Of a DNA stretch of 7,164 bases, positions 699-6,694 are shown one piece after another. The translations under genes and the position numbers were made by a program. The stretch is taken from the IMG/VR virus record IMGVR_UViG_2778261085_000001; one strand, given 5' to 3'. Position 1 is the first letter of the stretch. Every line of letters starts with the position of its first letter. A model generated the notes under the pieces. That model saw nothing but the letters and a program-made list of their open reading frames with translations, was not told the DNA's origin and ran no database searches. The DNA comes from a virus (Duplodnaviria > Heunggongvirae > Uroviricota > Caudoviricetes).

Positions 699-991
699 GG
701 GTAAGGGTTTATATCGCTGGTCCGATGACCGGGTATAAAAATTTCAACCGTGAGGCGTTCCACAATGCGGAAGAGGAACTGAAACGGGAAGGGCATACCG
801 TCTTAAACCCGGCAGTACTTCCGGACGGACTGACTCAGTCGCAGTACATGGATATCTGCATGGCGATGATACGTTGCGTGGATGCGATTTACATGCTGAA
901 TGGCTGGCAGCGGTCGGCGGGTGCTAAGGCAGAACTGGCGCTGGCGGAGAAGCTGGGGCATGCGGTTATTTTACAGAAGGCGATGCAGTGA
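695..991 (+). CDS. DUF4406-like phage protein (nucleoside 2-deoxyribosyltransferase-like fold), 98 aa
   Basis: The N-terminal motif VYIAGPMTG followed by NFN/EAF matches my memory of the DUF4406 family common in enterobacterial prophages. GTG start overlaps the upstream stop, with a GGAGG SD about 10 nt upstream. Confidence 0.6.
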   Translation: MRVRVYIAGPMTGYKNFNREAFHNAEEELKREGHTVLNPAVLPDGLTQSQYMDICMAMIRCVDAIYMLNGWQRSAGAKAELALAEKLGHAVILQKAMQ

Positions 992-1170
992 ATATGTTCT
1001 GGATAATCAAAATTGAGCTGTTTGTTATTGTTTTACTTATCAGTGCATTTCTGGCAGCGGCTTTTATTATCTGGGAAAATCCTTTTCGACATATCAGCCC
1101 GCTGTTTGCAATCAGGGTGTTAATAGCATCGGTTGTCGTGGTGTGGTTAATTTGTTTTGCATTATCTTAA
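988..1170 (+). CDS. Small membrane protein with two predicted transmembrane segments (60 aa)
   Basis: Strongly hydrophobic sequence (FWIIKIELFVIVLLISAFLAAAFIIW and VLIASVVVVWLICFAL). GTG at 988 overlaps the previous stop (GTGA); ATG at 994 is an alternative start. Sits inside the co-oriented operon. Confidence 0.5.
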   Translation: MNMFWIIKIELFVIVLLISAFLAAAFIIWENPFRHISPLFAIRVLIASVVVVWLICFALS

Positions 1171-2447: not shown

Positions 2448-2810
2448 ATGGCGACTTTGACCAAAGAAGAACGGTTTACCAAAGAGCAGTTAATAGCCCA
2501 CGCAGAGGAGACTATTGAATCACAGAGACTGTGCATACCAGGTACAATCGACCATGACCTCATTCGCGCATATAAGATGGATATTGCTGTTCTGGAAATT
2601 GCACTGCAATCGCTGGCAGCAGCGCCAGTTGGTAAATTTTATGAATACAAACCAGTGGGGTATCAGCGTCTGGTCGACGAGTTAACCATGCAGGTAAAGC
2701 AGTTAACCTGGCAACTGAGGAAAGCGAAGCCGGACTGCAAACTGCCGGATAAGGTGATGGACTACCTGGAGCGAAACGGACTGATAAGCGTGGAGGATAT
2801 TTTACGATGA
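2448..2810 (+). CDS. Phage hypothetical protein (120 aa)
   Basis: ATG at 2448 lies 1 nt after the preceding stop. No family recognised. The stop overlaps the start of a downstream small ORF (ATGA). Confidence 0.6.
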
Positions 2811-2890
2811 CCTGGCCTGAAGCATTCACAACGGCAGGAATTGCGATGGCGGTGGCGCTGATGGTGTATTCGATTTGCCGCTGGGGATAA
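2807..2890 (+). CDS. Small hydrophobic peptide (27 aa, [27 protein letters not shown]), likely a single-pass membrane peptide; absent from the ORF track
   Basis: ATG at 2807 overlaps the upstream stop (ATGA) and has a GGAGG SD at 2793-2797. It is the last ORF before the operon terminator at 2901-2926. Confidence 0.4.
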
Positions 2891-2926: not shown

Positions 2927-3085
2927 GAAGGAAACAAACAGAAACAACAATTGCCGTTATCTGTTGCCACCAATGACAAGTAAACGTATCACAGGCGAGC
3001 GCATTGCGCCGTTCTGACGCGCATAAGGTAGATCAGATTTCAGGAGCTGGCAATAAAAAGTTGGTGGAAAGTCTGATGCAGATGT

Positions 3086-3112
3086 GAAAAGACAGCCCCG
3101 AAAACGGGGCCG
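3086..3112 (-). terminator. Intrinsic terminator for the minus-strand 96-aa gene
   Basis: GCCCCG (3095-3100) pairs with CGGGGC (3105-3110) across an AAAA loop. On the minus-strand RNA the hairpin is followed by UGUCUUUUCA. It lies about 8 nt after the stop codon at 3119-3121. Confidence 0.7.
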
Positions 3113-3118
3113 GATTTA

Positions 3119-3409
3119 CTAAGCACCAATAATTCTGAAGATGTAATCCTTGAAGATGAGAGCCAGAGCTGCAGCAACAATAAACCACTGGAGTCGATCA
3201 AACTTGGTTTCCAGCTTGTTGAACCGTCTTTCGGTTTCTTGCTCCATTTTGTCGAGGCGCTTATCTATAACGTTCAGGCGTGTATCCATCTCACGACGGA
3301 GGTTATCAACGTTTTCTTGTGTTGCCAGGTGTTGCATGTTCTGCTGGCGATGCAACAAAGCATTCAGCACATCGCTGGTGCTGAACTCAATTTTTTTGTC
3401 GTCACTCAT
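3119..3409 (-). CDS. Coiled-coil protein with C-terminal transmembrane anchor (96 aa); possibly XhlA-like or DUF1640-like
   Basis: ATG at 3407-3409 (minus) has a strong AGGAGG SD 5 nt upstream. The central region is charged and heptad-like (RREMDTRLNVIDKRLDKMEQETERRFNKLETKFDRLQ); the C-terminus is hydrophobic (WFIVAAALALIFKDYIFRIIGA). It is a stand-alone opposite-strand gene with its own promoter and terminator. The family assignment is from memory and uncertain. Confidence 0.6.
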   Translation of the reverse strand: MSDDKKIEFSTSDVLNALLHRQQNMQHLATQENVDNLRREMDTRLNVIDKRLDKMEQETERRFNKLETKFDRLQWFIVAAALALIFKDYIFRIIGA

Positions 3410-4926: not shown

Positions 4927-5298
4927 ATGCGTATAGAGTTTGTTTTGCCTTACCCGCCGACGGTAAACACCTACTGGCGACGTCGTGGCAGCACATATTT
5001 TGTATCAAAAGCCGGTGAGCGTTATCGCCGTGATGTGGCGCTCATTGTTCGCCAGCAGCGGCTGAAATTAAATCTGTCCGGAAGGCTGGCAATAAAAATT
5101 ACTGCAGAGCCACCGGATAAGCGCCGTCGTGACCTGGACAATATTCTGAAAGCACCACTGGATGCACTGACACATGCGGGGTTGCTTATCGACGACGAGC
5201 AGTTTGATGAAATTAATATTGTGCGCGGTCAGCGCGTACCTGGTGGTCGGCTGGGTGTGAAGATTTACGAAATTACAGGTGGTAACGATGGCGCGTGA
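4927..5298 (+). CDS. rusA: Crossover junction endodeoxyribonuclease RusA (Holliday junction resolvase), 123 aa
   Basis: ATG at 4927 has an AAGAGG SD. The protein shows clear similarity to E. coli RusA as I remember it, including the acidic catalytic block DKRRRDLDNILKAPLDALTHAGLLIDDEQF, with the conserved RRRDLDN and LDD elements. It sits just upstream of Q, as in lambdoid prophages. Confidence 0.85.
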   Translation: MRIEFVLPYPPTVNTYWRRRGSTYFVSKAGERYRRDVALIVRQQRLKLNLSGRLAIKITAEPPDKRRRDLDNILKAPLDALTHAGLLIDDEQFDEINIVRGQRVPGGRLGVKIYEITGGNDGA

Positions 5299-5668
5299 TA
5301 TTCAGATGGTTCTTGAGCGTTGGGGGGCATGGGCGGCTAGTGATAGCTCGGGTGTGGACTATTCACCTATAGCTGCCGGGTTTAAGGGACTTCTGCCCTA
5401 TACCAGTAAGAAACGCCTGGCTTGTTCAGATAGTGACGCATTAATTATTGAAGGTTGTCTTGCTTGTTTAAAGCAAAAAAGGCCTTATGAGCATTCGCTT
5501 CTTGTGGCACATTATTTATACAGGATATCCAAGCGCAAGATTGCAAAGGCGCGTTGGAAGGATGAGAAATTGATACGTATAGAGATACAGATGGCTGAAG
5601 GGTTTATCGACGGTTGCCTGAGTATGTTGGATGTAAGTTTAGAAATGGATGCCGAAGTGGAATCTTGA
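5288..5668 (+). CDS. Late-gene antitermination protein Q (Q-family of the E. coli cryptic-prophage type), 126 aa
   Basis: ATG at 5288 has an AGGTGG SD at 5277-5282, and the start overlaps the rusA stop by 11 nt. The N-terminus MARDIQMVLERWGAWAA and the motifs IAAGFKGL and MAEGFIDGCLSMLDVSLEMD closely resemble the prophage Q antiterminators (quuD-like) I recall. The track's GTG at 5279 is probably three codons too early. Confidence 0.8.
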   Translation: MARDIQMVLERWGAWAASDSSGVDYSPIAAGFKGLLPYTSKKRLACSDSDALIIEGCLACLKQKRPYEHSLLVAHYLYRISKRKIAKARWKDEKLIRIEIQMAEGFIDGCLSMLDVSLEMDAEVES

Positions 5669-5676
5669 AACCAGAC

Positions 5677-5694
5677 AGCCCGATTACTCGGGCT
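5677..5694. terminator. GC-rich hairpin between convergent Q and the minus-strand moron; candidate bidirectional terminator
   Basis: AGCCCGA (5677-5683) pairs with TCGGGCT (5688-5694) across a 4-nt loop, giving a 7-bp stem. The minus-gene stop codon (plus TTA at 5684-5686) lies in the loop. Flanking runs are only moderately T-rich, so efficiency is uncertain. Confidence 0.4.
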
Positions 5695-6694
5695 TATCTT
5701 CAACATCTTTCACATGTAAAATTACGGCGGACTTGATATCTCCATCAATGTGTTTGGCATTGATGCTTAAATGCACAGGCTTTCTTTCCCATTCAGCTCG
5801 CTGTAAGGCTTCTTTGTTCCCTGATTCATCAAGGAATATATCCTGAACAACGCAGGTCAAACGTTGATCAGAATCGACCTTTCGAACCTTAACTTTGAAG
5901 CTTTCGGGGTCGGTATTATTCACTTCTTCGATACGGTATATACCGTCTATTCTCATTTCAACTGAGCGCCGACGAGCATTTGTTACTAGCTCTTTTGCCG
6001 TTTCTGAATCTATTGTGACACCGTCAATTTCTGCTGAATCTGAACGCACGAAAGATTTAACCATGGTGGTTTTAGCGTCATAAGACATTCGATCCATATT
6101 GTCGAGTAGAGGTTTTTTAGCCACCATTTCTGAGATGATTTGGAGGCGTTTTGTTTCCTCCTGTGTCATCACTTGCATTGCGCGTAGGTGTTCTTTGTCG
6201 CCTTCTTTAGCAATTTCAGCCAACCGAGTATCTTTACGGTTATCCAGATAGCGTTTGAAGACGGTTACACCGCCCCATATAACGGCAGCACCGAGAACCG
6301 TAAATACAATCTCTGTGGCGTTCATTTTCCCTACCAGTTCGTGCGTAAGCTTGCTTAGGAAGCCATCAATGTTAATCTCTACAAGAGATGAACCTTGCTC
6401 TACTGTAACTTCAATTTCTAAAGCATCAAGTTCTTCTTTTGTTAGCCTGCGGACATCAGGAGTTCCGAACTTTGCTAGCGCATAAGACTTATTGAGTTGC
6501 GATTGCATTTCAACAAATCCTTTCATAACTGAAGGTGTGAGTGATTTGTTGAATTTTTCACCAGTCAACCTGATGGTTAGACTTGGCCAACCATTGAAAC
6601 TAATTTTTTCGGGTAAAGCTTGTCCGTTTAGGTAACGTTCAAGTAATTCAAAAGCTTGCTGTTCAGACTCAACGTCGTAATGTATTTCGTACAA
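5684..6694 (-). CDS. AT-rich moron: hypothetical protein with a central transmembrane helix (336 aa); function unknown, candidate phage-exclusion protein
   Basis: A long minus-strand ORF with a TTG start at 6692-6694. There is an in-frame stop five codons upstream and no ATG or GTG between, so TTG is the only possible start for the full-length ORF; a GAGGG SD lies 6 nt upstream. One clear hydrophobic segment (ATEIVFTVLGAAVIWGGVTVF) sits between two soluble charged domains. G+C in four 60-nt lines I counted by hand is 38-47 percent, against about 58 percent in two lines of the DUF968-like gene. It is not a porin: no signal peptide and no C-terminal Phe. Confidence 0.65.
   Translation of the reverse strand: MYEIHYDVESEQQAFELLERYLNGQALPEKISFNGWPSLTIRLTGEKFNKSLTPSVMKGFVEMQSQLNKSYALAKFGTPDVRRLTKEELDALEIEVTVEQGSSLVEINIDGFLSKLTHELVGKMNATEIVFTVLGAAVIWGGVTVFKRYLDNRKDTRLAEIAKEGDKEHLRAMQVMTQEETKRLQIISEMVAKKPLLDNMDRMSYDAKTTMVKSFVRSDSAEIDGVTIDSETAKELVTNARRRSVEMRIDGIYRIEEVNNTDPESFKVKVRKVDSDQRLTCVVQDIFLDESGNKEALQRAEWERKPVHLSINAKHIDGDIKSAVILHVKDVEDKPE

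Follow-up and report, generated by a model that had tools for sequence, protein, structure and literature searches.

The locus and its setting

An open reading frame of 27 codons is found at positions 2807-2890, plus strand, of the window (the whole stretch of 7,164 nucleotides that was analysed), which is part of a lambdoid (Rac/Qin-like) prophage. Along the plus strand the gene order is DUF977 (winged-helix), DUF4406, an Ead/Ea22-like gene, a zinc-ribbon gene, DUF7167, a gene for a 120-residue protein, the 27-codon ORF and a terminator. Past the terminator lie a convergent gene for a 96-residue protein, then a gene for a 108-residue protein, DUF968, RusA and a complete Q antiterminator gene (5279-5668; Phage_antitermQ, E=4.5e-50). 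In E. coli strain C5, the nearest relative, the equivalent gene string is located downstream of ydaS/ydaT-type regulators, and the int-xis-recE-dicB arm lies on the opposite side of the string. The whole accessory cassette of the window belongs to a rightward operon, upstream of Q.

The ORF comprises 84 nucleotides (ATGACC...GGATAA, with TAA as its stop codon) and was delimited from the sequence together with the comparative data described below. Its upstream neighbor, the gene for the 120-residue protein (2448-2810, plus strand), was taken from the ORF list and is a PGAP coding sequence in the homologous locus L001. The start codon of the peptide (ATG, 2807-2809) overlaps the stop codon of this neighbor (TGA, 2808-2810) to give the sequence ATGA, and a Shine-Dalgarno sequence (GGAGG, 2792-2796, plus strand) can be read 10 nucleotides before the ATG. 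A first-pass annotation of this DNA had drawn attention to both the stop-start overlap and the Shine-Dalgarno sequence. Both are present as described; the spacing of 10 nucleotides is usable but long, most homologous copies having AGGAGG at 7 nucleotides.

A terminator hairpin followed by U5 occupies positions 2895-2927 (GC core from 2900) and was recognized on both strands by scanning and folding. The structure, A5-CCCCGGA...TCCGGGG-U5, begins 4 nucleotides past the peptide stop codon (2890) and folds with -23 kcal/mol (z = -4.6), a value equalled by 0 of 200 shuffled sequences, so that the strong terminator reported just 3' of the ORF is borne out. It had been described as the operon terminator, with the peptide ORF as the last gene before it. 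A terminator is indeed present, but it is internal to the rightward early operon, upstream of DUF968, RusA and Q, and the terminal position of the ORF holds for the window and its close relatives but not across the family. The hairpin and the peptide ORF are kept together in about 60 related loci. The spacer that follows the terminator (2928-3092) is conserved in related loci, and in one of them, L069, the hairpin is precisely missing and the spacer is retained, from which the terminator appears to be gained or lost as one unit.

The 120-residue protein encoded upstream matches phrog_660 (E=1.4e-38), and its last ~50 residues (72-120) match the C-terminal ends of PHROGs 660, 924, 8171 and 30109. 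These matches point to a C-terminal module of ~50 residues that is common to several protein families of the Ea22 region. The module accompanies the peptide ORF in about a third of its copies.

Other reading frames of the window lie outside the unit considered here. At 988-1170 (plus strand) is a second unannotated hydrophobic ORF, of 60 codons and with two hydrophobic stretches, whose GTG start overlaps the DUF4406 stop codon (GTGA) and which fills a gap in the PGAP annotation of locus L001 (2193-2384). It gave no tblastn match among phages and no Pfam or PHROG family, and it may be spurious or very narrowly distributed. The convergent gene for the 96-residue protein (3119-3409, minus strand) encodes a coiled-coil N-terminal part and a hydrophobic C-terminal anchor (...WFIVAAALALIFKDYIFRIIGA), and the protein is weakly similar to phrog_6701 and to XhlA-type "hemolysin" PHROGs (E 3e-5 to 2e-2). 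With an intrinsic terminator of its own (3093-3112, minus strand), this gene looks like an independently transcribed moron. Directly downstream of the complete Q gene, at the position where Stx phages carry stx, is an ORF of 336 codons (5684-6694, minus strand) for which no Pfam or PADLOC family was found.

Distribution, boundaries and annotation of the peptide ORF

With the 84 nucleotides alone as blastn query, the ORF was found in 1630 of 5426 complete E. coli genomes (about 30%), at a total of 3104 places, with up to 7 in one genome and 162 on plasmids. Among phages, tblastn recovered the peptide at full length and 55-93% identity in 93 records, which include 933W, VT1-Sakai, VT2-Sakai, Stx2 II, BP-4795, YYZ-2008, ArgO145 and ECOR-derived lambdoid phages; the virulent Vequintavirinae Av-05 and TH18 also carry it. 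Judged by the organism list of these matches, phage lambda records are without the ORF. The 181 plasmids that have it are mostly 90-100 kb in size and non-mobilizable, with Escherichia (155), Salmonella (25) and Klebsiella (1) as hosts, and the one plasmid inspected harbors P1-type genes (theta, a HumD-like peptidase and Phd). A scan of one genome per species placed the ORF only in Escherichia/Shigella, barring two contigs labelled Acinetobacter and Xanthomonas, whose size of ~400 bp suggests contamination. In lambdoid prophages the ORF belongs to strings of early accessory genes of the Ea22 / exo-xis type, which are part of the leftward early operon in some cases and of the rightward one in others; it is also carried by P1-like phage-plasmids and by a few virulent Vequintavirinae.

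Early in development, the pL promoter drives transcription of the exo-xis region (PMC4195576). The genes described for it (orf60a, orf61, orf63, orf73, ea22 and ea8.5) are non-essential, are mostly without assigned function and affect the lysis-lysogeny balance (PMC4195576, PMC8614690). These lambdoid genes resemble the peptide ORF in genomic neighborhood and in their expected early expression from pL, but the cassette of the window differs in belonging to a rightward operon upstream of Q. None of the described exo-xis genes encodes the peptide, and a modelling survey of the region mentions no transmembrane protein.

The limits of the conserved unit were drawn from mean pairwise identity across 37 non-redundant contexts, mutually <85% identical. 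Upstream, identity is about 0.3 from -90 to -54 and rises to ~0.5 just 5' of the Shine-Dalgarno sequence; it is 0.84 at the Shine-Dalgarno site itself (-12..-6) and 0.77-1.00 over nucleotides 1-84 of the ORF, and in the first six bases past the stop codon it is 0.34, which is background. The conserved mobile unit is the Shine-Dalgarno sequence, the spacer and the 27 codons, about 100 nucleotides in all.

What surrounds this unit is highly diverse. Clustering at 80% identity separates 18 upstream and about 19 downstream sequence contexts, and across the contexts examined there was no constant neighbor gene. Of 36 distinct upstream sequences, 35 contain a Shine-Dalgarno sequence, mostly as AGGAGG at 7 nucleotides or xGGAGG at 10 nucleotides, and the ATGA junction was seen in 98 of 99 copies. 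In 12 of 12 annotated records the upstream coding sequence ends exactly in the start overlap, which is TGATG in VT1-Sakai and ATGA in the others. The ORF is coupled in this way (ATGA or TGATG) to at least five unrelated families of upstream genes, among which are those for DUF551 proteins, p77 of 933W, a hypothetical protein of ArgO145, EaA, proteins annotated as "Ea22" and the 120-residue type of the window; in one more genome, a dATP/dGTP pyrophosphohydrolase-domain protein is annotated under the ORF match. A programmed frameshift that would join the peptide to the upstream product is unlikely, as no slippery heptamer occurs in any context. Downstream, other phages have the next gene 2-6 nucleotides away, or else continue with a hok/sok locus, a toxin-antitoxin pair or xis-int. 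In 933W-type phages the peptide ORF is ~160 nucleotides upstream of the hokW/sokW locus, a separate and independently conserved neighbor that is found in just one of the about 19 downstream contexts.

An apparent fusion of DUF551 with the peptide was rejected as a clustering artefact, the 121-residue DUF551 proteins ending in ...QEVNQ without the peptide, and the "partial DUF551" entries of 29-31 residues are mis-annotations at contig ends. At other loci (L138, L215, L125, L169, L124/L146/L150), unrelated tiny hydrophobic ORFs have starts that overlap the DUF551 stop codon, with products such as MPPVKVVIITLVMIVIARIMSGEIGWIW (28 residues), MFSITEISIVAIGMVCILIALR (22 residues) and MDSFAKYTIIDWIAFLQVLLIWFYMAY...; where such accessory genes end, small membrane peptides may recur as a class.

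The ORF was called in none of the 12 annotated records inspected. The exact 27-residue product does appear in a few GenBank submissions (e.g., AOM45384.1, BAI35516.1 and ETI78407.1) under the labels "hypothetical protein" or "bacteriophage protein", so that its description as unannotated holds for the records inspected but not for these entries. Gene callers of the Prodigal type stop at about 30 codons, and the expectation of the first-pass annotation that pipelines miss ORFs this short proved right for this one. No paper in the literature searched contains the peptide sequence; SMP7, from a preprint on small proteins of CFT073, is a different ORF, of 63 codons.

Coding status and selection on the peptide

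The length of an 84-nucleotide ORF is not significant alone, and support for a gene therefore comes from comparison. Pairwise dN/dS was computed for 43 alleles and came to 0.18 in the frame of the ORF, compared with 1.6-2.3 in four other frames. The wobble-aligned antisense frame likewise gave 0.18, a value expected by construction, so dN/dS alone cannot choose the strand. This antisense frame is open inside the ORF in every allele; stops in it occur in 3 of the 43 only, all on the complement of the sense stop codon. It is important to consider here the possibility that there is no gene on the plus strand, and that the 84 nucleotides are instead a DNA or RNA element, such as a recombination linker, or part of an antisense ORF. 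The equal dN/dS and openness of the antisense frame would be in keeping with this, as would the position of the block exactly at mosaic junctions, where it could supply a patch of homology through which modules are exchanged, and the existence of minus-strand ORFs annotated at this place. The latter are "hypothetical proteins" drawn across the peptide ORF, gp73 of POCJ13 (L020, NC_025434.1, 2506-2634, minus strand) and ORF C38 of Stx2 II (L004, 2001-2750, minus strand). They are probably false calls from the open antisense frame of a coding sequence rich in Ala, Val and Gly.

The choice of strand rests on the start, the stop, the Shine-Dalgarno sequence, the boundaries of the block and the quality of the substitutions. 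The 76 intact alleles contain 80 distinct variants, of which 35 are synonymous, compared with 27% expected from the mix of transitions and transversions (p=9e-4), and the variants are distributed 23/17/40 over codon positions 1/2/3. This concentration at third positions argues that the constraint is on coding and not on nucleotides. The start codon is ATG in 75 of these alleles and GTG in 1, and the stop is fixed at codon 28, as TAA in 71 and TGA in 5. Replacements have a mean BLOSUM62 score of +0.38 in the sense frame; in the wobble-aligned antisense frame the score is -0.37, and the implied changes are thus non-conservative. An antisense ORF would, moreover, need to take its starts from ~19 unrelated downstream sequences, often inside a hairpin, and its ends from within unrelated upstream genes, whereas the sense frame has an invariant start position, a Shine-Dalgarno sequence and interchangeable stops at a single position. 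No RNA family was matched, Rfam giving only sub-threshold matches, to the terminator hairpin. An explanation without a plus-strand gene is on these grounds extremely improbable, and the pattern of substitution shows purifying selection on the amino acid sequence of the peptide. With conservation bounded by the ORF and with start and stop fixed in unrelated contexts, the view that the ORF is positioned like a real gene is upheld, and 2807-2890 is very probably a genuine, translated, protein-coding micro-gene of E. coli/Shigella phages.

The integrity of the gene was assessed at loci anchored outside the ORF (in the DUF551 C-terminus, the hokW leader or the terminator), a sample that is blind to the state of the ORF itself. 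Of 155 copies located by blastn, 148 can be read from a start codon to the conserved C-terminus; 142 of these have 27 codons, and the other 6 have in-frame deletions of two codons, the 6 indels among readable copies all being in-frame. Six copies are disrupted, two by TGG->TGA at codon 3, two by -1 frameshifts at codon 2, one by a frameshift in a G-run at the end of the ORF and one by 5' truncation, and one further copy lies at a contig end. Anchored loci beyond the blastn set add a TAG allele of the POCJ13 type and a decayed remnant in L130. An apparent tandem duplication in L040 was rejected; it is a single copy with a 1-nucleotide G insertion that removes the stop codon. About 5% of copies are inactivated, which matches expectation for a dispensable accessory prophage gene, and alleles with W3R (8 copies) and P4S (4 copies) likewise indicate that the gene is dispensable in prophages. 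Comparison of synonymous with nonsynonymous change, and a search for frameshifts and stops in homologous regions, had been put forward by the first-pass annotation as ways to examine the ORF, and the outcome of both favors a gene.

Codons 2-3 (ACCTGG, 2810-2815) contain a Dcm site, CCTGG. Several alleles have the synonymous ACT at codon 2, and in the POCJ13 lineage the TGG of codon 3 is replaced by the nonsense codon TAG. Presumably, deamination of methyl-C at this site yields ACT, or TAG when it occurs on the other strand. Codon 3 is additionally altered to TGA, CGG and AGG.

The peptide is missing from the supplementary tables of two ribosome-profiling studies of EHEC, whose cultures were uninduced, for which reason its absence says little. 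A somewhat different proposal is that translation of the ORF matters and the peptide does not, in that passage of ribosomes would prevent Rho-dependent polarity, mask the terminator or provide a platform for re-initiation at the next gene. The coupling signals (Shine-Dalgarno sequence and ATGA) are the best conserved of the flanking features, and the stop codon in the window is 4 nucleotides from the base of the hairpin. A ribosome at a stop codon reaches several nucleotides downstream and, at this one, would cover the 5' arm of the hairpin. Yet an ORF of this kind should tolerate any sequence and any length, and what is found is purifying selection on amino acids, a length fixed at 27 codons and about 19 downstream contexts, many of them without a nearby hairpin. 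A role for translation only is contradicted by these observations and is very unlikely as an account of the family, although it may contribute a local, added effect in the window.

Predicted membrane placement and possible functions

The peptide of the window has a GRAVY of 0.92, a best 19-residue Kyte-Doolittle window of 1.86 and one basic residue, R25; the ranges over all variants are 0.8-1.5 for GRAVY and 1.7-2.6 for the best window. Residues M1, A6, R25 and W26 are invariant, W3, P4, G11, A15 and C24 are conserved at >=91%, and Y21, S22, A17 and E5 at 83-87%. The two tryptophans, W3 and W26, flank the hydrophobic core at a spacing of 23 residues, which corresponds to one membrane-spanning helix, and the sole charges are E/D5 and R25. 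According to the positive-inside rule, the basic end of a membrane helix faces inside, and the placement of the two charges accordingly predicts an N-out/C-in orientation. The single hydrophobic helix with a basic C-terminal end that had been seen in the first-pass annotation is thus supported, as a prediction. Within the core, small residues alternate (G11, A13, A15 and A17) to form the interleaved small-xxx-small motifs G11xxxA15 and A13xxxA17. Conserved positions showed no clustering on one face of the helix (conservation moment p=0.17), which makes an argument from helix packing suggestive only. A lipoprotein signal peptide was considered and rejected, since Ile precedes Cys24, one variant has Phe for Cys, and cleavage would leave a mature part of 4 residues.

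Searches of Pfam, NCBIfam, PHROGs and PADLOC returned no significant match (best E ~0.01-0.1, inconsistent between variants), and a PDB search returned 0 matches at E up to 10. The best family match was to KdpF (TIGR02115), with 15.8 bits against a cut-off of 26.85 and over 11 residues; the sole match to a holin family, phrog_785 (E=0.11, on an artificially extended form of the peptide), was likewise not significant. By its predicted features, the peptide would represent a new family of single-pass small proteins that belongs to the known class of small membrane proteins. The comparison set for this class consists of KdpF (29 residues), AcrZ (49), MgtS (31), MgrB (47), PmrR (29), CydX (37) and Caulobacter SidA (29). 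These small regulatory membrane proteins are alike in size, in having a single hydrophobic helix with few charges and interfacial aromatic residues, and in often being missed by annotation, and the peptide, like them, would probably bind a larger membrane protein in the bilayer. At 27 residues and with one predicted transmembrane helix, it lies within the bounds of the KdpF/AcrZ/MgtS functional class (<=50 residues, one such helix). They have no sequence relationship to the peptide, which further differs from the KdpF/AcrZ/MgtS class in being phage-borne, in moving as a 100-nucleotide module and in being coupled inside early phage operons.

A helpful precedent for insertion is the Pf3 coat protein, a 44-residue protein that adopts an N-out/C-in topology and is inserted by YidC. 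The logic of its topology, with a short acidic N-terminal tail, one helix and a basic C-terminal end, resembles that predicted for the peptide. The comparison covers insertion only, as the peptide is not a virion protein and has no sequence similarity to the Pf3 coat.

Taken together, these features are best accommodated by a composite explanation, to which we give a probability of roughly 0.55: a genuine micro-gene, expressed by coupled translation, whose product is a single-helix peptide of the inner membrane that packs against a larger membrane protein. Any transcription of the early operon would lead to translation of the peptide, coupled to that of the upstream gene. The peptide would enter the inner membrane as one helix from Trp3 to Trp26, with the acidic N-terminus (Glu5) toward the periplasm and Arg25 toward the cytoplasm in a topology like that of the Pf3 coat. 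Its action would take place inside the bilayer, through helix-helix packing by the nearly invariant Gly11, Ala13, Ala15, Ala17 and Ser22, and its partner would most likely be a larger inner-membrane protein of the host (or phage), as for KdpF, AcrZ, MgtS and SidA. In the context of this window only, the terminating ribosome could also dampen termination at the hairpin, because the stop codon is 4 nucleotides before it.

The main rival to partner binding is a self-assembling, membrane-damaging peptide (type I toxin-, holin- or abortive infection-like) that would oligomerise and depolarise or permeabilise the inner membrane. The first-pass annotation had likened the peptide to type I toxins, and there is a resemblance to this group (Hok/Gef, TisB, DinQ, ShoB, Ibs, Ldr and ZorO): a 27-residue hydrophobic peptide falls within the usual bounds of such toxins (<60 residues, hydrophobic, predicted to span the membrane), and entry into the inner membrane is predicted in both cases. 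TisB, DinQ, ShoB and Ibs are toxins of similar size and hydrophobicity that also have a basic residue near the C-terminus, and the two small-xxx-small motifs of the peptide could let one helix pack against two neighbors. Selection against a harmful product might, in addition, be reflected in several independent inactivating or radical changes at codons 2-4, namely TAG, TGA, W3R by CGG and by AGG, a -1 frameshift and a deletion of W3-P4; at least the TAG allele, however, is explained without such selection by deamination at the Dcm CCTGG hotspot.

The likeness to type I toxins does not extend to genetic organization. Such toxins have their own transcription unit with a promoter and 5' leader, but no plus-strand promoter-like site was found near the peptide ORF, whose start is tied to an upstream gene in all contexts, and the sequence 5' of the Shine-Dalgarno site is too variable between contexts to contain a shared promoter or 5' leader. 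An antisense RNA antitoxin, in cis or nearby, was likewise not found: there was no minus-strand promoter-like site over or beside the ORF, Rfam matches were below threshold, and the unconserved flanks hold no conserved sequence for an sRNA gene. An antisense RNA encoded entirely within the 84 nucleotides is a remote possibility. Carriage by strictly virulent phages is a misfit with a maintenance toxin module, and the presence of the gene in Av-05 and TH18 argues for a role in lytic growth. As for a holin or pinholin, the ORF resides in early accessory operons and not in a late lysis cassette with endolysin and spanin, and its holin PHROG match (E=0.11) is insignificant. PADLOC gave no match. 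Up to 7 copies are carried per genome, with 95% of copies intact, which also speaks against a toxic product. The toxin likeness was thus not sustained, and a peptide that assembles by itself to damage membranes seems improbable; a stand-alone killing toxin is less likely than binding of a membrane partner.

A more specific version of partner binding can be tentatively suggested, although we hold it to be unlikely. The peptide may be a dedicated phage effector that docks on one E. coli inner-membrane machine, for example a DNA-entry route, a transporter, the division apparatus or FtsH, and the 100-nucleotide module may serve at the same time as a shared joint for cassette exchange. If this were true, the gene would rank among the smallest known conserved genes of phages, the peptide would alter host physiology or exclude competing phages, and cassettes of the Ea22 region would be swapped at the module among lambdoid, P1-like and rV5-like phages.

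About 30% of the complete E. coli genomes carry this gene, many of them more than once, yet it has been effectively invisible: it is absent from RefSeq/PGAP annotation, Pfam, NCBIfam, PHROGs and the literature searched, despite its presence in 933W and in VT1-Sakai and VT2-Sakai. It illustrates cleanly how gene callers overlook ORFs under 30 codons, and how a gene of <100 nucleotides can act as a mosaic module in its own right. Time and again, small single-helix proteins have proved to regulate transporters, sensor kinases and the division machinery. Such precedents, together with early accessory expression, make the peptide a plausible modulator of host physiology or of the lysis-lysogeny balance of Stx phages.
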